A stretch of DNA of 63,581 nucleotides, filler included, from Dugesia japonica (taxonomy: Eukaryota): the NCBI GenBank assembly GCA_001938525.1. It is 6 parts of 6 records of this genome, joined end to end, with 100 filler letters (N's around TTAATTAATTAA, not from the genome) between each part and the next. Parts side by side here need not be neighbours in the genome. Positions count along the whole stretch, not along the records: positions 32,441 to 41,387 come from MQRL01451091.1; 5 more parts are not named here. One strand, given 5' to 3'. Below are positions 2,681 through 57,900 of the stretch, in pieces. The first letter of the stretch is position 1, and each line of letters starts with the position of its first letter. The position numbers and the translations under genes were made by a program. The notes under the pieces were generated by a model, which searched no databases, had not been told where the DNA came from, and saw only the letters and a program-made list of their open reading frames with translations.

Positions 2681-4553
2681 GTAATTACATAATTTATGAT
2701 TTTATAATTCAAAATTCTATTATTGAAGCAATAATCATTATTATTTTTAATTATAAACTATTTGTTCTATGATTTACTTTATCAAACTTTATCAAAATTA
2801 GGATTTCTAATAACGTGGGCGTTTTTAACATTAAGAAATTTCAACAGTATTGAAAATAAAAATTTTTATTTCAGAGTATAAATTAATTTTTTTGCCATTT
2901 TTAATGAGTAAAATAAATCAATGTTTCTGATAGATTATTGAAAAGTTTTATTATTTGAAACGATTAAGTCAACCAGCGAGAAGTTATGATCTTGAGGTGA
3001 TTGAGAAACGAATTTATTATACAGTGGAATTTCTGAGAATTCTTTGTTATCCTGAAGAACAGAATCTTTATCAATTAATCCGAATTTAAGGTCATGATGC
3101 GTGCTCGAAGAGGATGAGCTAAACGATGTGGTGTAATCACGGACGGATCCTTGAATTTTTCAAAAGGGGACAATATTTTTATTTTAGTGAAAATTTAATT
3201 AATAAATCGTAAATCTTTATTTGCAAGTNNNNNNNNNNNNNNNNNNNNNNNNNNNNNNNNNNNNNNNNNNNNNNNNNNCAAAAGAAATATTACACTTATA
3301 ATATACGTATATAACAATAACATTACTTACTATTGCAATCAGAACTAAAAAAATGTGTTTAATTATCTATCAATACAATAATAAACTGACACGAATCGTC
3401 AAATCACGCAATATTTACAAATCAATGAAATCACTGAACGTAACTCAACGAAAGTTGAGAACAGACTAATTGTGACGGAAACTTTTGAAAATAAAAAAGC
3501 TTCGACTTCAAATCAAACATTTGTTCATATTTCTCAGTAAGAGATTATTTTTAATTAAAAGTTTCCCAACGTTTATTGTTAAGATTCATAGTTGCATAGG
3601 GTTTGAGTACCAACCTTTTACACTGTTGGGTTTATGTGGTTTATGTTATNNNNNNNNNNNNNNNNNNNNNNNNNNNNNNNNNNNNNNNNNNNNNNNNNNG
3701 ACTAATTGTGACGGAAACTTTTGAAAATAAAAAAGCTTCGACTTCAAATCAAACATTTGTTCATATTTCTCAGGAAGAGATTATTTTTAATTAAAAGTTT
3801 CCCAACGTTTGTTGTTAAGATTCATAGTTGCATAGTGTTTGAGTACCAACCTTTTACACTGTTGGGTTTCCTGATCTTATATATTTATGTGGGTAGCTGT
3901 TATGTGTTGTTATATAGTTTTTGGTCAAAGAAATTAATACAGTGGTTCTCAAACTGTTCGCCGTGGCACCCTAGGTTGCTGTATCTGTGTCACAGGGTAG
4001 CCGTGACAATTGTCCAACATTAGAAATGTATAAAAGTAATAAATTCGAAGAACAAATAAAATTCTATTAACTCTTGTTCGCAATAATATAATTTTTGAAT
4101 AATATGATATAATTAACCCATAAGTCAAAAACTTCCATAATAATTTAACAATATTTTGATTAACGTTTAAAATTAAGTTTTTTGGTCCCATTTTGTTACA
4201 TTATAAAAATATTGATTTCCTTAAATACCGATAAAATTTTTTTGGATACAAAGAACAAAATCTTTGGTCCCGAAATGTTCACTTTATCCGGATTCTACTG
4301 TATATATAGTNNNNNNNNNNNNNNNNNNNNNNNNNNNNNNNNNNNNNNNNNNNNNNNNNNAAAACTTCCATAATAATTGGACAATATTTTGATTTACTTT
4401 TAAAATTAAGTTTTTTGGTCCCTTTTTGTTACATTACAAAAATATTGATTTCCTTAAATACAGATAATTTATTTTGGATACAAAGAAAAAAATCTTTGGT
4501 CCCGAAATGTTCACTTTATCCGGATTCTACTGTATATATAGTGATATATATTA

Positions 4554-4759
4554 CAATTATTGCGAGAATAATTGTTGGACGTAATCATTGATCGTTTTTT
4601 TAGAATTCATTTAAAATAAAAGCTTCGATCAAAATTTGTTTTTTGATCATAATTCTATATTTTGACTTTGTCTTAATATTTAATGTTTATTTGGTATTAA
4701 ATATTATAATCAGAAAAACGATCGATGGTTACGTCCAACAATTATTGTCGCAATCATTG
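4554..4759. mobile_element. Tc1/mariner-type MITE (~206 bp)
   Basis: ~48-bp imperfect TIRs (CAATTATTGCGAGAATAATTGTTGGACGTAA... / ...TTACGTCCAACAATTATTGTCGCAATCATTG), flanked by TA on both sides. Confidence 0.75.
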
Positions 4760-6091
4760 TAATTGTAAAAAACTGATATTTAGTGCTAATATAATATATT
4801 AAATTAAATGACTAAATAATTAAATGGAATGACAAATACTGTATGTCATCGGAATTAGTGTAAATTTTTAATTTATCTATTTTTATCAGTAACATTTGAA
4901 ATAATTACGTAAAAGTAGTTTTAATATTTCAAACAGCAAATAATAATCATAAAAAACGTAATAAGCAATAAATAAATTATGTAACAGTTGGATAATATAA
5001 TATAATTAAAAATTTTAATTGAAAAAATGCATTTTGAATTTTCTATCGAAAATATAAAAGTATGCGCCCACTGATTTATTTTATAATTTTGTTGGGCTGG
5101 AACACCAAAAATTACTCGAGTTAATAAAGGAATAGAGAATAGCGAAAATGGCTGAAATGACAAAGAATNNNNNNNNNNNNNNNNNNNNNNNNNNNNNNNN
5201 NNNNNNNNNNNNNNNNNNNNATTATTATTATTGTTATTATTATTATGTAATTATTATTATTATAATTATTATGGCGTATTTTGAGAAATATCAAAAAAAT
5301 GAAAATTGGGCGTGTTACAATTTCAGTGTTACAAAAAACGAAAAGTATATTTAAAGAAAGGCAATGATAAATAGGATAATAAAAATAAAATACGATAATA
5401 TAATAATTTATTAACAAGGTCTCTATGACCCATTTTATTTATTATAATAATGGATATTATCCATTTAATATTATTAAGTAAATCGGTCCAGTCATCAGTC
5501 CTTGTCTGGTTGACGAAAAATAAAACGAAAATCATCAGCAGATTAGCTGATTCATCCTGAGTCAGACAAGTACTTTTCCTCAGCAACGAGAAAGTTCATC
5601 GAGGTCACATGAGGTGACTGTCGAACGTTCCAGAATCTGGAAAATACGAGTTGTGGTGCGCCGAATTCACTGCCCAGAGGAGGAAAATAGGCTCACTGAC
5701 AACAGAGTACCAGCCAATCAAATACCGGAGTTTGGAAATCCACAAATCAAATACCGCTAACGAGTCAGATCCAAGATTTTTGTGTTCCCTAACAATCATA
5801 AAACTAGGAGACGCAAAGGAAAATGATCACTCTTTACTTTCTTATTTCCAAATTTTAAGAATTGCAAATTAAGGAGAAGTGCTACCATTTTTGAAAATAT
5901 TAANTTTATTGTTTGCGTTGAAAATTTTATCTACCATAATCATTTTATTTGGAAAACTCTTTTGGATTCAAACAAGGAAACTTAAAAGTAATTTTTTTCT
6001 ATTTATGGTATTGATTTAAAACGTTGAGGTATAATTTAAATGAATTCCGAGTGTCCTAATCGAGTCGTGCTCCCAGAAAAAAAAACAAAAG

Positions 6092-32597: not shown

Positions 32598-34328
32598 AAG
32601 GTCAAAGTCATATAGTATTCTGCGTTCTATTTGGTTGATTTGTTTCAAGATCAAAGTGTCATAGTATCCTGTGATCTGATTGGTTGATTTGTTTTCAGAT
32701 AATATTGATATAGTATCATGCAATATGATTGATCGATTTATATTAAGGTCAAAGTGATTTAGTATCCTGCGTTATGATTGGTTGAAGCCTTCCAAGGTCA
32801 AAGTGATTTAGTATCTTGTGATCTGATTGAACGATATGTTTCAAGGTTAAAGTGATATAGTATCATGTGATATGTTGGTTGATGTGTTTCAAGGTCAATG
32901 TGATATAGTATCCTGCGATCTGATTAGTCAATTTGTTTCAATGTCAAAGTGATAATGTATCATGCGTTATGATTGGTCGAAGCCTTTCAATCTCAAACTG
33001 ATATAGGATCCTGCGATTTGATTAGTCGATTGGTTTCAAGATCAAAATGATATTGTATCCTACGTTCTGACTTGTCACTACATTTCAAGGTCAACGTTAT
33101 ATAGTATCCTGCGTTCTGATTGTTCGACGTGTTTTAAGGTTAAAGTGATATAATTTGATGCGATAGGATTAGTTATTTAAATTCAAGGTCAAAGTAACAT
33201 AGTATCCTACGTTCTGATTGATAGATGTTTTTCAATGTCAAAATGATGTAGTATCTTGTGTTCTGATTGGTAGATTTGTTTCAGGGTCAAAATGATATTG
33301 TATCAAACTATATGATTTATCGATTTATATCAAGGTCAAAGTGATTTAGTATCATGCGTTATGATTGGTCGAAGTCTTTCAAGATCAAAGTGATATAGTA
33401 TCATGCGATATGGTTGTTGAAGTGTTTCATGGTCAAAGTGTTAAAGTATCATGCCATCTGATTGATCGATGCGTTTCAAAGTCAAAGTGATCTAGTATCA
33501 TGCGTTCAGACTGGTCGATGTTTTTCAATGTCAAAATAAAAAGTATGCTGCGTTCTCATTGGTCAATTTGTTTCAAGGTCAAATTAATATAGTATCCTTC
33601 GATCTGATTGGTCAATTTGTTTCAAGGTCAAAGTGATGTAGTATTCTGTGAACTGATTGGTCGATGTGTTTCAAAATCAAAGTGATATAGTATCATGCGA
33701 TATGATTGTTGAATTGTTTCAATGTCAAAGTGATATAGTTTCTTGTGTTCTGATTAGTAGATTTGTTTCAGGGTCAAAATGATATTGTATCAAACGATAT
33801 AATTGATCGATTTATATCAAGGTCAAAGTGATTTAGTATCATGAGTTCTGATTGTTCGACGTGTTTTAAGGTTAAAGTGATATGATATTATGCGATATGA
33901 TTGGTTATTTAAATTCAAGGTCAAAGTCATATAGTATCCTGAGTTCTGATTGGTCGCTTTGTTTCAAGATCAAAGTGTTATAGTATCCTACGTTCTGATT
34001 GATAAATGTTTTTCAATGTCAAAATGATGTAGTATCTTGTGTTCTGATTGGTAGATTTGTTTCAAAGTCAAAGTGATATTGTATCATGCTGTATGATTAT
34101 CGATTTATTTCATCGTAAAATTGATATTGAATCTTGCGTTATGATTGGTCGAAGTCTTTCAATGTCAAAGTGATATATTATCTGGCGATCTGATTGGTCG
34201 ATTTCTTTCAACATCAAAGTGATATAATGTCTTGCGATATGATTGTTAAAGTGTTTCAAGGTCAAAGTGTCAAAGTATCATGCGATATGATTGATAGATT
34301 TTTTCCAAGGTCAAGGTGATATAGTATA
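32598..34328. repeat. 49-bp satellite, ~35 diverged copies
   Basis: Consensus TCAAGGTCAAAGTGATATAGTATCCTGCGATCTGATTGGTCGATTTGTT repeated head-to-tail without spacers. Confidence 0.95.
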
Positions 34329-35263
34329 TTGAGTAGAGAAAAACAGAAATCGAGTTGATGTAGTTAGAAATTGCGCGAGAGTTACGAATCGAAATTATCA
34401 GAAATTGATAAATCATACAGTGAATAGACATGTAGAACAAAGAAAGGAAGAACAAAATATCGAATTCTGGTCTTGTCATAAGATCGGTCATGAGTAGTGT
34501 ATAAATGGCGTTTTCCCAACAAGGTTGTATCCCTTCCTTCACATACATGTTTGTTATGGGAAAAAATAGTGTATAGTGAATATAAATAAACCGCTTCTCG
34601 GGAAAACGCCATTTATACACTACTTGTGTTGATGGTTTAATTTCTAGATTTAGATTTTTTTATCTTTAGAAAAATAGAAATATGAATGCTAACTCAAACA
34701 GAAAAACAAATAAAATAATAAGTAGCTAAAAGTTGAATATTTTATTTTTTAAATAAAGTAGCGTGTAGAATATTTTATTTTTCTATTTATATTTGCAAAT
34801 ATGTTTTTAATTAAATTAATAAAAAGATAAAATATTTATTAATTAAATTTTATAAATTTATAAACGGAAAAATGTTTATCTATATTGTCATATAAAAAAA
34901 TTCTAAAATAAATTAACTTAAAAATTTTTTATGTTAGTAACTTTGTTATTATCTTTTTAGGAAAATGTTGCATTTATATAAAGAATGTTTATAATTATTA
35001 GGAAAGTAGATTGAAGTAGCGGTATCCTATGAATATATACTTTCTCAAAACTCACTCCTGAAGCTTGGTATTGACAAGACGAAAATTTAAGCACCTTGTT
35101 AAAGGAGTTTATGATTCTGATTTGCGTGTTTACTGTCACACAAATGACTTGCATGTAAATTAGATGATTAACAATGCATGAGATGGTGAAGAACCGGTTA
35201 TAAAAATAATAAATAAATTGGAGTTTTGCTATTTTTAATTTTATTATTTTTTATTATTAGAAA

Positions 35264-35541
35264 ATGGAAACAACAAAAATTAATCTTGACAATAATATTA
35301 ATTTCAATACTTATATTTGAAAAATGATGATTTAAGAATTTTACCCTCATCTGGAACAATTAATAATTTAATGTCTTCTGGAGATATAACTTTTCAATCT
35401 TTGCAATCATCCAACCCATTGGATATTTGTAGTTCAATGTTGTATATTAAAGTTAAATTAGAATTTGGTGCAGCTGATGCTCACAAAAATAAAATAACTG
35501 TAGAAAATAATTGGTTTCCAAGTTTATTTAAAACAATGGTA
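35264..35541 (+). pseudogene. Polinton major capsid protein (double jelly-roll), N-terminal fragment
   Basis: ILPSSGTINNLMSSGDITF...LDICSSMLYIKVKL...ITVENNWFPSLF follows the Polinton/adintovirus hexon N-terminal pattern; truncated at short AATAGTAATCG repeats. Confidence 0.7.
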
Positions 35542-35655
35542 TAGTAATCGAATCGTAATGGAATAGTAATGGAATAGTAATCGTATTGTATAGTAGTCGA
35601 ATAGTAATCGTATCATACAGTAATCGAATAGTATGGTAAAAGTTTTATTAAAAAA

Positions 35656-35871
35656 ATGGTTAGTCAAGAAATAACGCAAAGTGATTTGTATAAACTCTTA
35701 AAAATTTATAACTTTTTAGAAAACCCTATTTCAAGGTTTTGTGAACAAAATAATGTAAGTGAAAAAACAGTAACAAAATATTTAAAAGAATTTAATATTC
35801 AATATAATAGAAAAAACATTAAATTTTCTGAAAGAGATGCTTTTTTATTGGACAATATAAATCTTTATTAA
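35656..35871 (+). CDS. Small helix-turn-helix-like ORF inside element A
   Basis: PISRFCEQNNVSEKTVTKYLKEFNI fits an HTH pattern. Confidence 0.45.
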   Translation: MVSQEITQSDLYKLLKIYNFLENPISRFCEQNNVSEKTVTKYLKEFNIQYNRKNIKFSERDAFLLDNINLY

Positions 35872-36177
35872 AACGTTTTGATAAAAAACCCAACGGGTCC
35901 CATCAACAAAATCAAAATCCTATCAGACCTATTCAAAATCCAATTCCTAAACCACAGAATCAAAAAACCTAATATTGATTATCGCGCAATGAATGATTCT
36001 GATTTTTTAAAATGTGTTGAAAATACTATTCGAAAGAAATTATAACGTATCATTTTATCACTAATGAAAATGGCCAGTAAAAAATCCAATGATAATCCCA
36101 ACGGGTCCCATCCTAAAGGGTCCTATAAAGTAGAATAAGTTTTGGATATAAATACTTTATATAGATTTTATATCTAG

Positions 36178-36461
36178 ATTACATTTTGTTGTTGATTGAT
36201 CTGGTGTAACTTCTATTCTATAATTTTTAATTTATTAGATTTTTCTTTAATTTCATAAGCTCCTGGTTCAATTGTTTTAAGTTCTTCTTTCTGTTCTGCT
36301 TTGAAAGTAAAAGTATCTTTTTTATTAGTAACATTAAAAATAATATTATAACAACTAAAACATAATAATCCCATTTCATAATCTAAATCTTATTCTAATA
36401 GAAATTTTAAATCAACTTTTAAATCGCTTTCTTTACCAACAACTAAAAATTGATGAGACAT
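36178..36461 (-). pseudogene. Polinton minor capsid protein (penton), N-terminal fragment
   Basis: MSHQFLVVGKESDLKV...DYEMGLLCFSCYNIIFNVT...KTIEPGAYEI matches the penton YExGL..F..YNSIPNV and IPxGSYEI motifs. Confidence 0.75.
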
Positions 36462-36495
36462 TTTCTTTAGGTAAAGTATTTATTCTTATATACAT

Positions 36496-37310
36496 TTAAT
36501 TTTTAGTAATTAGTTCTAGCTTTAATAATTCTTTACAAACAGATTTAATTTCTTTGTCTAAATTATTATGACCGGCTTTTACAGCCGAAATTAATAATGT
36601 TAATCTTTCAAATAAAGAAAGTCTGTCAACATACTTTAAACCTTCACCTATAATGGGGTCCTTTGGGATATCTTCTTTTCCAATTAAAATGGGGACTTTT
36701 GGGATTTCTTTTTCACTATCAACACCTTTTTTAAGTTTTTGGTATTTTTGCTGTTCGCTTGTGCTCAGGACTGGAAGTAGCTTCTTTTTTCGCAGTTAAT
36801 AAATCGCGATGTTTAGAATTAGTAGGAAATGTAATATTTAATTTATTTAAATAAATATCTTTTACTTCTGGATCATTACTTCCATTTCCCAAAATTAAAT
36901 TCATTACTTCTTCAGAATATAGTATTACGTTTTCTTTAGATAAAAAGTATTTTTTCCCATTTTTTTCAAATAAATATAATTCTTGGGCCCCCTGGAATTA
37001 GGATCAATTATTTTTTGAAAGTTTTTATTATCAATATTTTCTATTTTAAATGTGGGTGTAATAATTGGAGATAAAGTTTTAATATTTTATTAATTTTAGG
37101 AAAGTATGGTATTCTTTTTTCAAATGAATTTGTAGATATTTTACCTAATTTTTCAATAGCTTTAATAGTAGGTTGTTGCTGAACAGTTAAATCAGCTTGT
37201 AAAGTTCTTGATTCAATTACATTACCAGTAAATAAATTATCATAATTATCTTGAGCTTTAATTAAATCTTTCAAAAGTTTCATTGTTTCTGTTATTTGTT
37301 CACTATCCAT
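36496..37310 (-). pseudogene. Conserved Polinton protein with C-terminal RLxLLxxSxxAGN motif, frameshifted
   Basis: C-terminus GEGLKYV...LFERLTLLISAVKAGHNNLDKEIKSVCKELL; N-terminus is ORF 37041-37328. Confidence 0.65.
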
Positions 37311-37312
37311 TT

Positions 37313-37753
37313 TTAAAATAATTATCATAAGGTTTTAAATACAAACCATCACCTTTTATTTTAACCTGAATTCCATTTTTAAAGTTTTTAGTAATCATTT
37401 TCAGTTCTGAATTATCTAAACTACTTTTTAAATATTTATGAATTGAACTTCCTTGATAAGTTTTTAAGTAAAGACCAGATCCGGAACTAGTTTTATGGAG
37501 CTCTTTAGGATTTTCAAGTTCTTTTTTATTTACTTCTAATTTATTTTCTAAATCTTTTTTTCTGTAATTTAACTAATTCAATTTCTTTTAATTTTTTGAT
37601 GGCATCTCTAGAATTACTAACTGTACTTGCAACTGCACTAGCTGTACCAGCTACTGCAGCCGCAGCTCCAGCGGCAGTTGTTATTCCTGCAATTATAGCT
37701 GGTATTGCAGCTAGGAAAGTAAAACCATCTTCACGTTCTTTTCCTGTTGCCAT
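37313..37753 (-). pseudogene. Polinton Gly/Ala-rich amphipathic virion protein with GxGLYLKPY repeats
   Basis: EDGFTFLAAIPAIIAGITTAAGAAAAVAG..., then GSGLYLKTY and GDGLYLKPY, resembling adenain-type cleavage sites. Confidence 0.7.
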
Positions 37754-37899
37754 TTTCTTTTTTTATTTCTTCTTTAACTAGTTTCCCAATTCAATAGTTT
37801 TATCCATTAATTTTTATAGATTTAGATTTATTTGAATTTACTAAATCAATTAATTCTTGTTCTGAAACTGAAGACATTTTCTTTGTAAAAATAATATAC

Positions 37900-37990
37900 C
37901 TAAAATTATATTAATAAAGAAAAAGAAATGATATAAGATTTTAACATAAAGTTGAACCTAAAGTTTAAGTTGAAGTAGAATATCACAGTT
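37900..37990 (-). pseudogene. Possible adenain-like cysteine protease C-terminal remnant
   Basis: YSTST*TLGSTLC*NLISFLF resembles Q...SxxCGxxCxxFL and lies between the ATPase and the virion protein. Confidence 0.35.
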
Positions 37991-38025
37991 TTCCAGTGGG
38001 AAATTTTCACTCTTCAAATAAATTA

Positions 38026-38775
38026 TCAATTAGTTTTCCAGTGTAAATTAACTTCATAATCATAATCGATTTTACTAGAAAAAATGTTACTAAATAAATC
38101 ATAATAAACATTATCTTTATCAGTTTTATTTAATTTAAAAAATATAAAACAATTAGAATTATTTCTATTAGAGTTTTTATCTAAATGAAAATAAGTTTGA
38201 GAAATATAAATCACATTACAATTTACATGTCTTCCTCTAGTAAAATAACGTTTTTGTACTTCTTGATTTTTTTCATTAACAACTTCATCAAAAACTAAAA
38301 AATTACTTTTATCCTTAGATAATTTATCACAAGGAAAAATTTCATTTGCTTTATTACTTAGAATTACATTTATCATTCTTTGGTTTTTGATATGTCCCTT
38401 TGGGATTAAATATTTTTTTATATACCTTTCAATAACTAGTAATGGAGTAATTAAAGAATCTAAAATTTTATTTTGATGTTCAAAAATAAAAATGATATCT
38501 TCTTTTGTTAATCCATTTTCAAAACCATGATAAAGTAATTGTAATTCAAATTGCTTTTGATTAAAGTATCATAATCTAAAAACTTTGGAGTTAATAACAT
38601 TTTCATTAGTAAAACATTTTTACCTGATTCTGAAGAACCAATTATTAATAATTTAAATTAGATGGAAAGATTTTATTATTAAATATATTTTTATTCCAAA
38701 TTAACGCAGAAATTTTTATTAAATAAAAAAATTAAGAATAATCGGAAGTTATTTTTTCATCTAAAAATTCATGTA
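38026..38775 (-). pseudogene. A32/FtsK-like DNA packaging ATPase of element A
   Basis: Walker A LLIIGSSESGK, Walker B FLVFDE, arginine finger YFTRGRH and IYISQTYF; frameshifted. Confidence 0.88.
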
Positions 38776-39204
38776 TTTTTATTTCATCCTCCTAACCTAC
38801 CATACGTTTATCATTTATTTTATTTACAATTAGATTTAATATACCTATACTAAATGGATCCATANTTTTTAAATTTAAATTCTTAATATAATTGATTAAT
38901 ATTTCAATTTCTTTATCTAACATATCTCGAGGTTTTAAAAAACAAGTATCTAAAGTTATCCACCTCCAAAAGTATTCTGGTGGATTTCCTAAATTATTTC
39001 TTTTATCTATTGAGTTTATTTGGGCTTCTTTTTTTAATTCTTGTTTTTTTCTTTTTATTTGGTTCCTTTGAATTTGTTTATCAGTTTTAATTAATAAATC
39101 ACTTTTTATGGTTTCTTTTAATTCTTCTATTAATTTTTCTTTTAGTTCTTGTTTAAATTCATTTTTAATTCTTGTTTATCAGTTTTACTTAATTTTTCTT
39201 TTAA

Positions 39205-39420
39205 TTCGTCTTTACTATAAAATCTGCCTAGAATTTTTTCATTGTCTAAATCAGTAATTCCATAAGTAAAAGGTTTTGTATTATAAACTCGAGTAACTAC
39301 AAATATTTCATTTGTCCATTTGGCTGTAAAACATTTTTCAAATTTATATTTATATTTAAAGATTCTATCTAACTCTATCTCCTATTTCAAACTTTTGTTT
39401 TTCTTTTATAAAATGTTTCT
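39205..39420 (-). pseudogene. Polinton integrase C-terminal fragment
   Basis: KFEIGDRVR...KYKFEKCFTAKWTNEIFVV...PFTYGITDLDNEKILGRFY; catalytic core deleted up to the TIR. Confidence 0.82.
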
Positions 39421-39739
39421 ATTTTACTAAAGATAAAAAAATCTAAATCTAAAAATTAAACCATCAACCCAAGTAGTGTATAAATGGCGTTTTCCCGGGA
39501 AATTGTTTATTTATATTCACTATACACTATTTTTTCCCATAACAAACATGTATGTAAAGGAAGGGATACAACCTTGTTGGGAAAACGCCATTTATACACG
39601 ATTGTCATGTCATACGAGCGGTCATACTAAAGTAAATTGTCTTACAAAAACAGTAATAGAGTGCTGAAGTTGTCATAAAACAAGACATATAAGTCGAGAT
39701 TGCTCAATTAAATATCATTACTCAATCTACAATCTTTAA

Positions 39740-40999: not shown

Positions 41000-41387
41000 A
41001 GTAGGTAGATAGTGGCGCCCTGGATCACCCCCTCCCCCCTGGACAAAGAACTTTTATAACAAATAGCATGAGTCATAAGTATGACTCATCGCTGACTAGA
41101 ACAAAGACCATGACTCATCGATGACTTATCGTTTTTCTAGATCAGGATGAGTCATACTTTGAAAATTTTTTCTATGTACATTTAAACAAAGCCAAAATTC
41201 TCTAGATCAGGGTGACTCATCATTTATCGAAAATTTTTCTATGTCCATTTAGTAAAAGAATAAAATTTTTATTTTTATTTTTATTTATTTTTTTTTTAAA
41301 TTTTTTTTTTTTAAAATTTTTCTTAAAATTTTTTTTTAAAAATTTTCTTTTCAAAATCTTCTTTTTTTTCTGAGCAGTTTTCACAAT
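41000..41387 (+). mobile_element. Polinton/Maverick-type terminus inserted in Gypsy RT, with an AP-1 site cluster
   Basis: Starts AGTAGGTAGATAGTGGCG exactly where the Gypsy RT breaks (at the residues following YxDD); runs to the contig end. Confidence 0.62.
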
Positions 41388-43237: not shown

Positions 43238-43606
43238 TTGTATCAGAAAACGAACAAAGAAAACGATTTCAATAATTTATTCACAAAAATATCGAGGCAT
43301 CGTAATGTTACTGTAATATTTATTACACAAAATCTATTTCATCAAGGAGACAGTCATAGAACCCGTAATTTAAACGTGCAATATTTAGTTCTATTCCAAA
43401 ATCCTAGGGTTCAAACTTTTGTTGATTTTCTATCAAGAAAAGCATATCTAAATAATAGACAATTTCTTATTGAATAGTTTTACGATGCAACGAAAATACC
43501 TCATGGATATCTATTTCTTGACTTTACACAACAATGTCCAGATGACTAAAGATTGAGAACAAATATATTCAATCCAAATAGTATCACAGCATTTAAACAA
43601 AATAGA
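43238..43606 (+). pseudogene. Packaging ATPase of element B, C-terminal half
   Basis: LFTKISRHRNVTVIFITQNLF...RTRNLNVQYLVLFQNPR...DATKIPHGYLFLD...RLRTNIF, the typical Maverick ATPase C-terminus. Confidence 0.9.
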
Positions 43607-43887
43607 TAAGTTTTCCTATTAAAAAATGACAAATTTAAAGAAATTTGTAGTTGACCAAGTAACTGATGGTGTTGTTAATTGCCAAAAAATATCTTTTGAG
43701 AAGAAAAAGTATGGAAAAAAGAAGAAACAATCGCATAAGAAACAACATGTAAATAAGAAGAAACGAGTAAATAAACAGAATGTTTTAAAAACTTACAAAA
43801 CGAAATGAAAAGAAGCTGAAAATGATGAACAGAAAAAAGATATTATTATAAATAAATAAATTATATGTATTAATTTAATAAATAAAG

Positions 43888-44210
43888 ATGAAATTACAAA
43901 GAAGTATTCCGTTTTATACAGCTTTGATTAAATAATGAAACCCTTTTAAAATGAGAATTTTCCAATCATTCCCACCATATTTTATAGATGATTTACTAGA
44001 AATTATTATAAATACTGTTTGCGGTATTGTAGATTTGAGTGCAGTCAAAAGACAAACATTGAAAAAACATTAAAAAAAACTTTATTAACGCTTGTAAACA
44101 CACAATATAGAAAATCAATGAGACGAGTAAGGAATAATCAAGAAGGTAGCTTTATAGCAACATTACTACCAATTGCATTGGCTGCATTAGGCTTAACTTA
44201 TTTCAAATAA
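43888..44210 (+). pseudogene. Small basic Maverick virion-core protein (QxGGFL-type C-terminus)
   Basis: FIDDLLEIIINTVCG...KTLLTLV...NQEGSFIATLLPIAL; paralogous copy at 55180-55495. Confidence 0.7.
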
Positions 44211-44319
44211 ACAATGGTTGACTTTAATATTAATAATTACAATAGAATTAACTCAGATGAGCAATGGGTGGATTGCAATCATTACCCAACTTTGACCGGA
44301 AATTTGCATCAAATTGTTG

Positions 44320-44640
44320 TAATGGAGACAAAAATGAAGACAATATAGACGGATCCAAAAAACCGATCAGGTTTTCAAGGCGTAGAAAAATTGATGAGAG
44401 CAGCTCAAAAAACAAAAACAAAGACCAAAAAGATGTTATCTGGTCATCTAGTGTACAGCCTAAACAAGTCAATGTTGAAAAGATTTCCAACAAGAGCATA
44501 TAAAGCATATAGTATTGATGATTTATGGTAAATGTATCTAATGGAAATGATCCATTATTATTATTCAAAGATTAATAAACTTTACAAGTATATTTTTGTC
44601 TTTTATCGTTTTATTCAATAGATTTACAAGACATGTTNNN
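44320..44640 (+). pseudogene. Maverick integrase N-terminal fragment (element B)
   Basis: DPKNRSGFQGVEKL...YSLNKSMLKRFPTRAYKAYSIDDLW; colinear with 55568-55816. Confidence 0.8.
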
Positions 44641-44750
44641 NNNNNNNNNNNNNNNNNNNNNNNNNNNNNNNNNNNNATGTAAAATAATATAAATACGAAA
44701 ACCAAGTTGAATATTAGCAACACTAATAACATATCAAGACGAAAACTCAG

Positions 44751-45835
44751 ATGAAATCAAATAATTTTTATACGCTTTTATCTAGTAATAGTAGTCCGCT
44801 AGTTCATCCAAATAATACTCCTAGTAATTAGATTGTTGAGCTTCAAAATCCAATTTTCATGAATGGTAGTTAAGAAGTTGCCATGATAGATTTCACCTTT
44901 GTATATTCAGCTATGCCGATTTACAATCAATCTAGGATTGTAAATGAATTATTTAAACTAATTGAGAAGGAACTAATAATTGTTGTTAACAATAAAGAAA
45001 AAAAGTTCTTTTAACTGTTACTAGTAAAGNNNNNNNNNNNNNNNNNNNNNNNNNNNNNNNNNNNNNNNNNAACGAAAATATGATATACTTTAGTAGTGAT
45101 ATTAAATTCCATAGTTTATCATTTGATATTTTAGAAAATTAGGAAAGATTTTCGTACAATAGAGTTTAAGTAATACAATTGGGTAATTTTGTAAATCTTG
45201 ATACTAGTAAATATATTGGTGATAAAACTTTTACTATTCGCTTTCATACTTTTAAAAACGATGATTCTGTTGAACAAATAAATATTAAATATTATTATGC
45301 AATTGTAACTAAACATTATTTTCAATTTGAAAACCGATTTGTATATAAAAGATATAAACCAACTAAATGATTATATTAAGAAAAGCCTTTCAATGTTATT
45401 TAAAACTTTTTCATTAAAGCAAGATGAACTATTTCAATTTACATTATCAAATAAAACTAAAAGTGTTAAATTCAATAAATTCTTAACCTAATAATTAGGA
45501 TTAAAAGAATCGCAATATACTCGATTACATATTAGTGATGAACAACTACAATATGAAAGTATCAAGAAACCTAGAATATTAAAGTGTTATAATGAAATGT
45601 TCATNNNNNNNNNNNNNNNNNNNNNNNNNNNNNNNNNNNNNNNNNNNNNNNNNNNNNNNNNNNNNNNNNNNNNNNNNNNNNNNNNNNNNNNNNNNNNNNN
45701 NNNNNNNNNNNNNNNNNNNTATTTTCTCATCATATATAAACAATATAGAAATCAATATACGTGATGATAGTGGAAAACAAATCAATTTTGCAGAAGACTC
45801 AAAAACTCATTTAAAGTTACATTTTAGAAAAATTA
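44751..45835 (+). pseudogene. Maverick minor capsid protein (penton), element B
   Basis: N-terminus NNFYTLLSSNSSPLVHPNNT...LQNPIFMNGS*EVAMIDF; C-terminus IEINIRDDSGKQINF...THLKLHFRK. Confidence 0.82.
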
Positions 45836-45837
45836 AT

Positions 45838-46255
45838 AAGCAGGTGGAGAATTATCTTACTTTCTTGGGAAATAGTATGAATCTGGTTGGTTATGAACCA
45901 TAGTGAGATTTTCTTTGCCTATTCTTAGACGTATTGGTTCTTTGGGTATGAAAACCGCTCAAGATTTACTAACTAATGATGGAAAAATACTACCTATATT
46001 AAAATCAAATGCATTAGCTGAACTATGAAATGTAGTTTCTTCCTTACATAGTGGAGGTACCAGTATGATCCCAAAAGTAGCAGGTATATTGCCAGAAAGT
46101 ATAACAAATAAAATACCATCTGAAATAACTAATATGCTAACAAATCAACCCAAAACAGAACCAACTAATAAAAAACGTTAACAATCACATGCATCACGTA
46201 TAAACCAACGAATGAGAGGACATGGAACAATATTTTAAAAATGATTTGCTCCAGA
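45838..46255 (+). pseudogene. Maverick core protein (GGxLxYFxG-type) followed by the first codons of MCP (ATG 46241)
   Basis: AGGELSYF..GK*YESGWL*TIVRFSLPILRRIG...RGHGTIF; the next ATG reads MICSR, matching IICSK of the MCP in element C. Confidence 0.7.
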
Positions 46256-52501: not shown

Positions 52502-55500
52502 ATCTTAATTAATATTTGTAATGTTATTGTTTTTTATATTTTTTAAAAGTTGCTTGTATATACATGTACACACATGTATAATGAAAACAATAATTTTAAA
52601 ATTTTATTATGGAAAAAAGCTGTCAATAAATTATGAATTATGAAATTCAAATTATGAATTAAAAATAAATATTAAAATTCTTGGCAACCGCCAAATGTTA
52701 TTGTTAAGTAATAATAAGAGAGAGAGATAAGTAATGATATCAAAAATGTGTATTTCACAACAATGCTATGTGTATATATATTGGGATCAGGTATAGTAAT
52801 TACCAAATCGAACTTGTTGGTAATTATATCATCAAACAGTCAAACATATCTGATTTTTCAGGCATACATGCAAACATACAATTACANNNNNNNNNNNNNN
52901 NNNNNNNNNNNNNNNNNNNNNNNNNNNNNNTTAATTAATTAANNNNNNNNNNNNNNNNNNNNNNNNNNNNNNNNNNNNNNNNNNNNAAAAAATGCTAAAA
53001 ACCTTCTGAAAATTTAAGAATTTTGATTGGTCGATAAAAATGCATGAGAAATTTTAAGTGTTCTAAAAATTTGAACATTTTAATTGGTCGATAAAAATAC
53101 ATGAAAACTTTTTTCGATTTGAATTTTGGTTTGACTAATTTTCGGTCGGGAAGTTTGAAAATTTTAATTTTCGGAATTTAATTTTCCAGGGAATTTTTAC
53201 GATATGATTTCAAATTTGTTATGGTTTAACTTTGAATTAAATTCTTAAAACGAATAAAGTTTTAATTTTTTCAAAACATGTTTGGGTCTCACTATAAAAG
53301 TATTAGTGCATCAGCACACTGACTTATTTTATAAATTTCTCAGTAAAAGCTTATTGTATTGCTCCGAAACTGATAGCATTTGATGTAGAATAAAATTCCA
53401 AACATAATTTGTATAGGGTTTGTTGTATAAATATTCTTGGTTCAAGAGATAGGAAATGGCCAGGTACCATGCCCCACCTTGGATAAAAGAAATTGTTTAC
53501 TCTAGAAATACTTATGATGAGTAAAAAAATTTAGTATAGTTGAGCTCAAAATAAAAAGCTAAAATTTACAGTATAAAAATGTTTTGTTCAAGAAATAATT
53601 TATGATTATATAATTACTTACATAATTAAATTAATAATAATTTTTTAAAATATTTTGAAACCATTCAACTCAGAAGTAAAAAACTATATTATTATTATAT
53701 AAAATAAGATATTTTTGATAAAACAAGATTTATTTCAATAAATAGTTCATATATAAACACATTTGAGCTGATTAATATTGTGTTGGTTTGCATTGATACA
53801 CTAAAAATAATGAATTAAACTATTGAAATAATAATTAATAAAATAATACATTTTATTGTTTTGATCAAAGGTTTTATCATGAATCGTTAATTTTTCACGA
53901 AAAATATCAGCCAAGTCAACTTCTTTCTCTACTTTAACTGGTTCCTTGGAAACTGAATAATTAATATCTATATACTACGCCAAATAATTTTATCAATGAA
54001 TAAGTTTTTCACAATTTACTTTTCGTTTATATTATTTAAAATCAATTAATCATACACACATTCATAGAAATAAAACATTTTCATAACATCACAGGGTCAA
54101 GGTTTATACAAAAGGTAATAAATCATACATATTACATAATCTAGAGCATTACAAATCACGTACACGGATAAATTGTTACATTTTTAATATAAACTAAGTC
54201 AATATGTAATATTTTATTAAAGAATATGCAAGAATCGAAAGATAGAGCAGCAACCATTGGTTTTGAATCTAAGAAGACCTACTTCGACAAACTAATCACT
54301 TATTAGTTTCATGTAACATTCAATTTCATCATTACAATTATTAATTTTCATTTAGGAACAAGTAAATGTACTCCAAATCTAAATGTAGCTTGCAGTTAAC
54401 AAACATTAGCAAGTCTGATCAAACAGCTATCAATGATATTCTATCAAAATTGAACAATATCATGTCAATAAAAGATAGGGCTTTCATAGATTCAAAGAAA
54501 ATAATCATTAAAAAATGTAAGATCATAATGAACATACTAGGATACAAGAAAATAGGTAAAGTTACAAAACCTATTTGGGAGTTGGAAAAGGCAGAAATAT
54601 GTACGAAAGAAGTTATCTTTACCTAAGACAATCTTATGAAAATTGTAATTGATTCTGGAATGCTTCGGGACTAATACCATTTTAAGATGAATTTCGTCCT
54701 AAAGCCGATTATTCATGCATTTCAAGTAAAATTTGTAACTATTATTACTGTTATTATTATAATTTAGAAAGCAATAAATATAAGCATGCAAATATTAGAA
54801 ATCAGTTCAGAGGACAAGAAAATAATCAACAATCTTTTATCAAGAATTGACAATATGTTGAAAATAGATGATGCTCCATTTAGAAATGATAAGGAATCAT
54901 ATGATAATAAAATGTCTGAAATTAAAAAGGTTTTAGTTGATCATGTAAATGATGGTTTATATAACGAGAATAATTCAAAAATAAAAGGTAAAAAGCTAAC
55001 TGTAAAGAACAAGAAGAATTCAATAAAGAAGCATACAAAGAGGAAGCATATAACAAAGAGATATGTAAAGAAATAGTTGAGCGAGTTCTTAAAACTATCA
55101 AAAAGCTTTAGAAAGAAAATTTCAAATGTTAATGGAAAATAGGTCAAGATATAAACAATCTGACTCTTTGTATTTAAATAAACATTGTGGAATTTAAGCA
55201 AAGTCTTCCGCTTTTTAATATATTGCAAAATGTTTCAAAAGAGTCGACAAGGAAATTGCTACAGTTATTTCCAACATTTGTTATAGATGATTTATAAGAG
55301 ATAATTGTGAATGATGTTTGTGGTAATTTAATTATAAGTAAAATAAAAAAATTAGCATTACAACGTCATAAAAAGTCATTGCTTTCAATTGTAAATACAA
55401 AGAATAAAACAACAATGAGAAAAATAATTTATAAACAAAATGGAAGATTCCATGCTGCATTATTACCAAAAGCATAAGAAGCATTATATCTAGTATAGTT

Positions 55501-55567
55501 TACATAAACAATGGGTAACTTGCAATCGTTGTCAAGAATTTATCTCGAATTTATGTCAAATTGTTGA

Positions 55568-56604
55568 AATGGACAAAATCGAAGCAATATGAACATACCC
55601 AAAAAATCCAGCAGGGTTTTAAGGAGTTGATAAACTGTGGAAAGCAACACATAATTCAAAAAGCGAGACAAAAAGTGGTTATTGAACCAGTAAGCGTACA
55701 GTCTGAACAAGTGAATGTTGAAAAGATTCCCTGCAAGATCGTATAAAACCTTTGGTATTGATGATTTATGGCAAATGGATTTGATGGAAATGATACCTTA
55801 TTCAAGAATTAATAAANNNNNNNNNNNNNNNNNNNNNNNNNNNNNNNNNNNNNNNNNATTTGCAAGAGTTGTACCGATAAAATCAAAATCTGCTAATGAA
55901 ATGGAAGCTGCAATCAAAACAATCTTCAAAGAGGTACATCCAGATAATTTGCAAACTGATTTGGGAAAAGAATTTTATAATTCAAAATTCAAGAATATTA
56001 TCAATCATCTCAAAAAAACCAATGTTCTGTGTTTTCGCAATACATAACAGCATATGTTGAAAGATTTAATCGAACATTGAGAGATGCATTGAAAAGGTAT
56101 TTTGCACATACTGGTAATAAAACTTAGATACATGTATTACCGAAAGTAATCGATACTTATAATCATACAAGTCACAAAGGATTAAATGGAGCAAAACCAG
56201 TTGATGTATTATCTGATAATTCAATGAAATTATGACTTTTGAGACATAAACTAAAAGTGATCAGGAAACTAAAATTTAAAGTTGGTGGTCATTTTAGAAT
56301 CTCAAAGATATCAACTTCACCATTCATCAAAAGTTTTGATAGTAATTGGAGTGATGAAGTGTTTCAAATATCTAAAATCAATATCAAACAGAATTCAATC
56401 ATGTATGTGATTAAAGATTATGAAGAAAACATCATTGTTGGAAAATTCTATGAATAAGAATTACAAGTTAATACACAACCAGCAGTATTTAGAATAGAAA
56501 AGATTATCAGATCAAAGGGAATTGAAAAGTATAAACAATTATATGTAACGTGGGATAGATTTGAAAAACCAAGTTGGATATCAGCATCTCAAGTAGTAAA
56601 CTAA
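55568..56604 (+). pseudogene. Maverick retroviral-like integrase with C-terminal chromodomain
   Basis: IDDLWQMDLMEM, LQTDLGKEFYN, VERFNRTLR, YNHTSH, NWSDEVF, GKFYE and FRIEKII...LYVTWDRFEKPSWI motifs; stops and frameshifts. Confidence 0.93.
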
Positions 56605-56620
56605 GCCAAGAAGAAGGAAA

Positions 56621-57352
56621 TTGAGCAAAACGAATAATTTTTATACACTATTACCGAGTAATAGTTGTCCACGTATTCATGCCGATAATAAAGCAAGTAG
56701 ATTCATTGTTGCACTTGAAAATCCTATTTACTTGAATGAACAATGGCAAGTAGCCTTGATGGACTTTACCTTTATATATTCTGCTTTTCAATTATACAAC
56801 AAATCGTACATAAATATGTAACAGATGATGATTATGAGAGGAATGTAGAAATCATAATCAATAACAAAGAAAAATCATTTATGATTCATGATGTTGGTTT
56901 TGATGCAATTGATGAAAGATCATTGTCAATCATATTAAAACATCATAATAATGTTGTAATATTTGAAAATTTAGAAGATTTCAAAAGATTTCAATTTAAT
57001 ATTTAAGGAATAATATAGAATCGGATTCTAACATACAATATCAAGACTTTAAAAACGATGATTCGATTGATGTTGTGAAAATGAAATTAGTAGTTTCAAT
57101 AGAAACTAATAAATCTATATCTTAACAAAACAAATATTACATATCAAATTTGGATCAATTTCGTCGTTTCATCACAAAAATGTTCAACTATGTTTTCAAA
57201 ACACTTACTATAAAAAATGATGAACAATTTCGATTTTTGTTGATGGAAAATTTTAAAAGAATATAAATATCAATATTCAAAGTGATAGTGGAGAATTAAT
57301 AAACTTTGCTAAAGACTCAAGAACTCATTTAACTCCACATTTTTGGAAAAAA
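56621..57352 (+). pseudogene. Maverick minor capsid protein (penton), element C
   Basis: NNFYTLLPSNSCPRIHADNKASRFIVALENPIYLNEQWQVALMDF ... INIQSDSGELINFAKDSRTHL. Confidence 0.85.
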
Positions 57353-57900
57353 ATGTCTAATCTCGAGATTATTAAACTTTATAGTACTAGTCAAGCTGAT
57401 GGAGAATTGCCGTACTTTGTAGGAAAACAGTTTGGATCTGGATGGTTGCAAACAATTGGACAATTTACTTTGCTTCGCCTTAGACGTATTGGAACTATTT
57501 GTATGAAAACAGCACATTATGTAATAAATAATAAAGCAAAAATTTTACCCTCTCTCAAAACAAATGCTTTGACTGAATTTAAAAACTTTATGACTTTTCC
57601 TGAAGTAACGAAACTAAGGCCAAAGGACAACATTACAAATGAATCAAAACTCAAAGTTGCTGGAATAAAGGGTATGTATTATAAAGCTTATAAAGAGGCT
57701 ATAATTTGTTCAAAAACTGAACTATGTATTTTTGATCGTCCAACTTCTCAACGTGTTATTGAATATGGATTATTTTAAGATGTGTTTCCAATGAATTCAA
57801 TTTATGAAAGTAGAAATGATTTAGACATTTTTAAAAATGGATCACAACTTGATTATATGGATTTGAATGATACATTATTGTATGATACAAGTAAGAGTTG
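57353..57900 (+). pseudogene. Maverick core protein running in frame into the major capsid protein N-terminus (MCP from ~57673)
   Basis: QADGELPYFVGKQFGSGWL; then CSKTELCIFDRPTSQRVIEYG...FPMNSI...NGSQLDYMDLNDTLLY, matching the MCP CxKSELDLF..PPTQ and YxDLxxTxLY motifs. Confidence 0.85.

Follow-up and report, generated by a model that had tools for sequence, protein, structure and literature searches.

We report a decayed Polinton of 5,111 bp (34493-39603) in Dugesia japonica whose terminal inverted repeats (TIRs) hold the family's terminal 25 bp twice, head to head. The repeated terminus delimits a module of 132 bp that constitutes the outer part of an otherwise ordinary Polinton TIR. The element is flanked by a target-site duplication outside its outer arms, and the same two-armed module is present in other copies of the family. 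We regard this arrangement as a real, family-level variant of the Polinton TIR, its function being a matter of inference. The reading that we favor, with a probability of roughly 0.55, is that of a family-level TIR design in which the outer ends alone would be used and the inner copy would be either a second, uncut site for an end-binding protein or a passenger.

Materials and methods

The window is the whole stretch of DNA analyzed, 63,581 nucleotides (63.6 kb) in length, and all coordinates refer to it. Positions 34400-35300 were compared at 80% likeness with contigs from 4 of 12 sequencing runs (X1, X2, X6 and X7, from three studies); at most 25% of the words of the stretch occur in any one run. 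Statements on these contigs apply to the entries listed, comprising 40 of 113 differences, 24 of 976 loose ends and 32 of 6,424 pieces. Contigs drop rare variants and show presence only, and summed contig depth is not equivalent to copy number. Nor were the depths of AT-rich bins (34555-34585 and inside 34710) read as copy numbers; at 80% likeness such bins attract unrelated matches.

Architecture of the terminal repeats

Both TIRs are 191 bp long and share a layout that reads, from the outside inward, as outer arm (25 bp), loop (82 bp), inner arm (25 bp) and tail (59 bp):

34493-34683, plus strand: left TIR, 191 bp, complementary to 39413-39603 at 180 of 191 positions
34493-34517, plus strand: left outer arm, 25 bp, beginning with (AGT)2; the true left end
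34518-34599, plus strand: left loop, 82 bp
34600-34624, minus strand: left inner arm, a perfect inverted copy of the terminal 25 bp, with (ACT)2 at its plus-strand end
34625-34683, plus strand: left TIR tail, matching 39413-39471 at 55 of 59 positions
39413-39603, minus strand: right TIR, 191 bp, an inverted repeat of the left TIR composed of tail (39413-39471) and module (39472-39603)
39472-39496, plus strand: right inner arm, identical to the left arms at 25 of 25 positions
39497-39578, minus strand: right loop, with 5 differences in 82 positions from the left loop and the same orientation relative to its end
39579-39603, minus strand: right outer arm, perfect for 21 bp (39579-39599), its last four bases damaged

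The original prediction placed an inverted copy of 34493-34517 at 34600-34624, and the two agree at all 25 positions. Its description of the remaining termini calls for some amendment. The same module does lie inverted at the right end (39472-39603), but its outer arm is perfect for 21 nt only; of the four terminal-type sequences proposed, three have intact motifs and the fourth is damaged and lacks (ACT)2; and the 132 bp taken to be the TIR are a module, present at each end, of a 191-bp TIR that continues for 59 bp past the inner arm. At the damaged end, 39600-39603 match the mirrored left end at 2 of 4 positions, and because (ACT)2 is missing there the right stem measures 21 bp.

The two TIRs differ at 11 of 191 positions (5.8%), with 2 differences in the outer arm, 5 in the loop, none in the inner arm and 4 in the tail. 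At this divergence, 25 positions free of differences are expected with a chance of 0.23, and the perfect mirror formed by the inner arm therefore speaks neither for nor against its being part of an ordinary TIR. Between the two TIRs, arms and the remaining sequence (loop and tail) do not differ significantly (2 of 50 versus 9 of 141 differences; P = 0.73). The 21-nt core of the arm has four matches in the window, as against none in each of 100 shuffles, and no perfect inverted repeat of at least 21 bp with a loop of at most 150 exists in the window apart from the two modules. Three arm words are re-used in the left loop (34558-34564, 34567-34575 and 34581-34587), in which arm 7-mers cover 23 nt, compared with 2.3 in shuffles; 2 of 2000 shuffles reach 23. 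A 12-bp palindrome overlaps the junction of the right loop with the right inner arm.

Identity of the element and its insertion site

Polintons, or Mavericks, end in long TIRs with (AGT)2//(ACT)2 or (AG)3//(CT)3 termini. The claim that the present element is a Polinton holds on its end motif, which is of the (AGT)2//(ACT)2 type, intact at the left end and damaged in the last four bases at the right; on a 6-bp target-site duplication in an internally repetitive target; and on the remnants of ATPase, capsid and integrase genes that it encloses. The packaging ATPase and double-jelly-roll capsid genes are both present as broken remnants. The features of the element and its flanks are as follows:

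34400-34492, no strand assigned: high-copy host repeat, the insertion target, resuming at about 39626
34487-34492, plus strand: left target-site duplication, 6 bp (GTCATG), identical to 39604-39609
35302-35538, plus strand: double-jelly-roll capsid gene, N-terminal fragment, 61% identical to residues 12-85 of P0170 (PF21738)
37541-37762, minus strand: possible fragment of a protein-X-like core protein, a weak lead (Adeno_PX, E = 0.026, under the curated cut-off)
38026-38672, minus strand: A32-like packaging ATPase gene, two frames broken near 38556 (Pox_A32, E = 3.2e-05, above the cut-off)
39178-39366, minus strand: retroviral-like integrase gene, C-terminal fragment, 60-63% identical to the C-termini of P0167 and P0169 (rve, PF00665)
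39604-39609, plus strand: right target-site duplication, 6 bp, identical to 34487-34492

The integrase trace is a C-terminal remnant only, its 60-63% identity being to rve-bearing proteins, and no integrase catalytic core was found within the element. A Pfam scan of 15 element fragments, out of 36 stop-to-stop frames of at least 40 aa, returned no polymerase, the protein-primed family B enzyme expected of Polintons included, and no HUH/Rep gene in what is a mostly deleted element. The copy is a non-autonomous Polinton derivative or remnant, not an intact Polinton, and neither an autonomous family member nor a helper was seen. Its nearest integrase relative also bears a PLA2-like domain, a domain type reported for adintoviruses in the accessible sections of PMC8502044. 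The sequence indicates an AT-rich eukaryotic host, and the adintovirus-like relatives point to a probable animal. ESM Atlas scores of the capsid and integrase fragments fall below the recognition threshold and are leads only, and a sub-threshold Pfam match to TcdB_N at 37044-37334 was taken to be a helical chance match. The capsid-gene fragment lies on the strand opposite to the other gene remnants, and directly after it a degenerate tandem repeat of 11/16 bp (35535-35643) interrupts the element.

The two GTCATG copies enclose the element as a whole, in register beyond the outer arms, and neither 132-bp module has a target duplication around it at this locus. The host repeat into which the element inserted (34400-34492) reaches summed contig depths of 35,000-214,000. 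Among the 24 of 976 loose ends listed, the one most often met behind 34491 is, in each of the four runs, similar to the right flank from 39626 on; for the X1 loose end, 25 of 30 letters agree with 39626-39655 in a comparison by eye. Given the damage to the right terminus and the internal repeats of the target, the 6-bp duplication has an alternative reading. Positions 34466-34491 and 39600-39625 are alike at 20 of 26 positions, and at 19 of the last 22, so that a flank duplication of 22-26 bp combined with loss of the element's last four bases is possible. The divergence of a 26-bp duplication would be too high for the age of the element (P = 0.003), while that of a 22-bp duplication would be compatible with it (P = 0.13).

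The surrounding sequence holds several other repeats. Directly left of the Polinton-bearing host repeat, positions 32598-34327 consist of some 35 tandem copies of a unit of 49 bp (73% matches). Further Polinton-like debris occupies two regions that are 66-73% alike (43238-46022 and 55267-57775) and includes an integrase-like stretch (55990-56466) and a weak ATPase match (43238-43531); the end module was not found in either region. Two small elements with perfect inverted arms of their own, of at least 18 bp (4550-4763) and at least 14 bp (41077-41159), are possible MITEs and are unrelated to the Polinton module. Near-identical duplications flanking 50-N gaps (1275-2059, 3464-3869 and 4128-4542) are likely scaffolding artefacts.

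Related copies in sequencing runs and sequence collections

A diverged version of the complete module, differing by 22 letters and 4 gaps (about 80% identical), lies on a single contig in each of the four runs, and the two-armed design is therefore common to a copy about 80% identical to the one described here. The contig begins at 34494 in X1, X2 and X7 and extends 24, 24 and 7 nt, respectively, past 34624 into unlike sequence, at above-minimum depth in each case; in X6, it carries 212 unlike nt outside the module and 15 inside. Judging from this branching, diverged copies would have differing flanks on the outside and share a different tail on the inside. The original prediction had named the lack of the inner repeat in other family members as half of what would speak against it and had asked for the same nested repeat to be sought in autonomous members; other copies of the family carry the inner repeat in all four runs.

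The outer arm behaves as a genuine end in these data. Nine X6 contigs have loose ends before 34493 whose agreement of 0.47 denotes mixed flanks, and this marks the outer arm as a true terminus at more than one site. In the mixed loose end, the final six letters are the reverse complement of 34625-34630. Depth at 34627, 3 nt past the inner arm, is 56-68% of that at 34606 in all four runs, suggesting that the inner arm is mostly part of a TIR and runs on into tail-like sequence. Depth at the start of the loop is 7-15 times that of the distal tail, both being summed contig depths. One contig (X1 record 1) covers 34494-34625 only, within 1 nt of the module ends, and is ambiguous.

At inner-arm position 34606, 81-90% of the depth carries another letter, with no matching change at its outer-arm partner 34511 among the 40 of 113 differences listed, a pattern that fits arms which are not corrected against each other in every cycle. 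The letter carried by 77-85% of the depth at 34518 would lengthen the stem by one pair. Majority differences among the same 40 of 113 affect 1 of 50 arm positions and 7 of 82 loop positions (P = 0.26). No strand change occurs in any of the 14 joints listed. Two of these joints retain both arms and omit or substitute the greater part of the loop; one leads from 34529 to 34601 and is present in three runs, the other leads from 34532 to 34610 and is present in a single run.

Searches for related ends in wider collections returned no relative. The exact 21-nt arm has no match in viral contigs, and the 16-nt terminus has 15 matches there, none with an inverted partner (best candidates with 10-13 mismatches in 25 for 13 matches, and none found for 2). 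A single metagenome match to the 20-nt arm, in a bacterial-looking coding stretch otherwise unlike the window, was dismissed as chance, and a gapped two-arm pattern gave five matches with perfect arms of 9-17 nt, neither of the two examined being related. ATPase-based locus searches of viral contigs yielded no locus in two cases and in a third 2 distant ones, 36-38% identical over 57 aa, in which no terminal repeat was found; phage records gave no match, and the cluster members of the six closest ATPases have uninformative names and contigs of at most 3.7 kb. Two contigs met in these searches have structures of their own. An 18.5-kb viral contig, an unrelated chance match of the gapped pattern (L020, 980-1170), terminates in a long inverted repeat, upstream of which lie short direct repeats. 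A viral contig encoding a distant ATPase relative contains perfect inverted arms of 22 bp separated by some 100 nt (L022, 11611-11756), not at a known end.

Predicted folding and pairing of the ends

The modules are predicted to fold into a stem of 21-25 bp with energies of -29 to -33 kcal/mol, and all four module strands fold better than 200 of 200 shuffles (z from -7.6 to -9.4). The proposal that each end could fold back independently holds as a predicted stem at both ends: the left module would form a terminal hairpin with a flush 3' end, and the right one a hairpin frayed by four bases. End-to-end pairing of the TIRs into a panhandle is predicted at -190 to -193 kcal/mol, compared with -66 to -68 kcal/mol for two local folds, and is the co-fold minimum. 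Fold energies ignore kinetics, however; a displaced 5' end can fold locally before its partner is free. Isolated loops do not outperform shuffled sequences (31-120 of 200). Weak self-complementarity is present in the left loop (27 and 19 of 2000 shuffles), and that of the right loop is at chance level (425 and 368 of 2000). The only Rfam match, to a microRNA, was rejected as a generic stem far below threshold (22.6 versus 245 bits).

Interpretation of the nested terminus

In the reading that we favor, the inner copy would have arisen through fold-back or a template switch at the terminus during strand-displacement synthesis, an event that may also have left the arm words in the loop. Once established in one TIR, it would have passed to the other by way of an end-to-end (racket or panhandle) intermediate, and such copying between TIRs would give both ends the same loop orientation and a shared 59-bp tail. 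Integrase and protein priming would act at the outer ends. The inner arm would most likely constitute a second, uncut putative site for the integrase or for the polymerase/terminal protein, or else a tolerated passenger; a local hairpin could form transiently on the displaced strand, but replication would not need it. This interpretation is supported by the position of the 6-bp duplication, outside the outer arms and not around a module; by the extension of the inverted repeat 59 bp past the inner arm; by the common loop orientation at both ends; by the predicted energy of end-to-end pairing (-190/-193 versus -66/-68 kcal/mol); by the depth retained at 34627 in four of four runs; and by diverged contigs that start at the outer end and continue past the inner one. 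Counting against it are the 7- to 15-fold depth of the module over the distal tail, because solo modules would give the same, and the X1 contig that ends within 1 nt of the module on either side.

The nested terminus may instead be put to work. We entertain as a tentative possibility that an (AGT)2-ended Polinton family carries a second inverted origin or attachment site in each TIR and uses it for hairpin self-priming or self-repair, for shedding a 132-bp integrase-mobilized mini-element (a Polinton-derived MITE), or for both. Taken separately, the first of these uses appears doubtful. The module would then be a working fold-back end, in which the 3' terminus of a displaced strand anneals flush to the inner arm and serves as a primer for inward synthesis, the closed end being opened later by a nick, and self-primed replication or end repair would operate beside protein priming or replace it. 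The perfect 25-bp stem ending exactly at the terminus, the retention of both arms in a copy about 80% identical, the weak self-complementarity of the left loop and the additional stem pair at 34518 are all consistent with such a mechanism, and the same model is proposed for the terminal palindromes of protist virophages and PLVs in the available text of 10.64898/2026.07.28.741278. The match of the mixed X6 loose end to the reverse complement of 34625-34630 adds a faint hint of flipped modules or of inner arms placed on the outer arm. Hairpin priming predicts flip and flop forms, yet both ends share one loop orientation, an outcome expected half the time and alone uninformative, and none of the 14 listed joints changes strand, in contigs that show presence only. 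The right loop is self-complementary at chance level, no loop strand beats its shuffles, and no HUH/Rep gene is present among the 15 scanned fragments. Furthermore, it is with protein priming that ends of the (AGT)2 type have been linked, according to the accessible part of PMC4196379, and the preprint, as far as its available text goes, ties its palindromes preferentially to non-pPolB elements.

That the Polinton integrase also mobilizes the module alone as a MITE, in which case modules would outnumber full TIRs, we consider unlikely. As a short non-coding unit of 132 bp with 25-bp arms for TIRs, the module has the form of a MITE, with two complete end motifs facing each other. The excess depth at the loop start, the departure of whole-module contigs from the reference at 34624 in all four runs and the near-exact span of X1 record 1 point in the same direction, but the depths are summed over contigs and are not copy numbers, and AT-rich bins draw unrelated matches at 80% likeness. 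Neither module of the element is flanked by its own duplication, no solo copy occurs in the 63.6-kb window, 56-68% of the inner-arm depth runs on into the tail, and the diverged contigs break outside and continue inside, as a shared tail would explain better than random flanks. The related claim that two modules captured the intervening DNA and mobilize it as a composite transposon is not supported, and we give it hardly any credence: the layout is formally that of two inverted mini-elements around 4.8 kb, and the outer ends were used, but Polinton genes make up the interior, and the inverted repeat reaches 59 bp farther inward than the modules, a continuation that independent insertions would fail to produce. 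A one-off rearrangement or an assembly artefact at the locus is very unlikely as well. Gaps abound in the window (1,449 N), some of them next to duplicated stretches, at most 25% of the words of the stretch occur in any run, and no contig among those listed spans 34400-35300. Nonetheless, single contigs span both arms and the loop in four of four runs from three studies, though of other copies, and the 11 differences between the two TIRs indicate that they are not one collapsed copy; the reading as a local accident or artefact is thereby largely refuted.

To our knowledge, Polinton replication has so far been inferred from sequence alone. An end in which the terminal signal occurs twice leads to predictions that can be counted, namely the orientation of the loop (rolling-hairpin versus panhandle), the use of inner versus outer ends and the occurrence of solo modules. 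If flip/flop or solo modules occur, the panhandle model would be incomplete and the hairpin ends of protist relatives would extend to (AGT)2-type elements; if neither occurs, the TIR substructure would map the likely minimal end signal to 25 bp. Self-priming ends, if real, would form a bridge between adenovirus-like and parvovirus-like end replication.

Comparison with known systems

Duplicated end signals are familiar from the IR/DR-type TIRs of Tc1/mariner transposons such as Sleeping Beauty, which hold an outer and an inner end-binding copy in each TIR of about 200 bp, the outer alone being cut. The inner copies of Sleeping Beauty are direct repeats without a cleavage site, whereas the copy described here is inverted and includes the whole terminus. 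Among Mavericks, (AGT)2//(ACT)2 ends and 6-bp duplications are usual hallmarks and TIRs range from 46 to 1,447 bp, according to the available sections of PMC8097293. The element resembles Polinton/Mavericks of the adintovirus type in its end motif, 6-bp duplication, TIR length within that range, and ATPase, jelly-roll capsid and rve-integrase remnants. It differs from them in its length of only 5.1 kb, its broken genes, the lack of a polymerase remnant among the fragments scanned, and the inverted recurrence of its terminal 25 bp 107 bp inside each TIR, of which the available sections of PMC8097293 make no mention. A racket-like single-strand model of Polintons is presented in a review (PMC4196379, accessible part). 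Nested termini do not appear in the accessible portions of PMC10748475, 10.1101/2025.02.07.637071, PMC6431247, 10.1101/2022.07.28.501842, 10.64898/2026.10.13.758929 and PMC8502044. No description of an inverted second (AGT)2 terminus or of a Polinton-derived MITE was found in the accessible text of the literature searched, which mostly excluded subscription papers and left out the original 2006/2007 Polinton papers and Repbase entries, where nested repeats may already be noted.

Self-complementary ends are known from AAV, whose ITR of 125+20 nt requires Rep nicking at a resolution site and adopts flip and flop forms (PMC11575299, available text). The present module is similar to it in size and in having terminal self-complementary arms, a 3' end flush on the stem and a unique inner segment thereafter, but no Rep gene appears among the 15 fragments scanned and no flip/flop among the 14 listed joints, and the loop by itself shows no significant structure. 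In bidnaviruses, which possess a Polinton-derived polymerase, the repeats are said not to form parvovirus hairpins (PMC4061559, in its accessible part). Casposons, some of whose TIRs have internal palindromes (PMC4046053, available sections), are likewise self-synthesizing transposons, but are prokaryotic and rely on a Cas1 integrase, and a copy of the terminus within their TIRs is not described in those sections.

A further parallel is found in the endogenous virophages and PLVs of Halocafeteria seosinensis, which, in the available text of 10.64898/2026.07.28.741278, have palindromes inside their TIRs beside the target duplication, for which both hairpin priming and an accidental origin are proposed. 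The idea of a priming structure put forward in the original prediction thus has a precedent. As in the present element, these palindromes lie inside the TIR, beside the target duplication and at both ends. They are, however, tight, one subtype having palindromes of 52 nt and the search allowing gaps of up to 10, and belong preferentially to non-pPolB elements of a protist host, as far as that text goes, whereas in the element described here 82 nt separate the arms, each of which repeats the (AGT)2 terminus.
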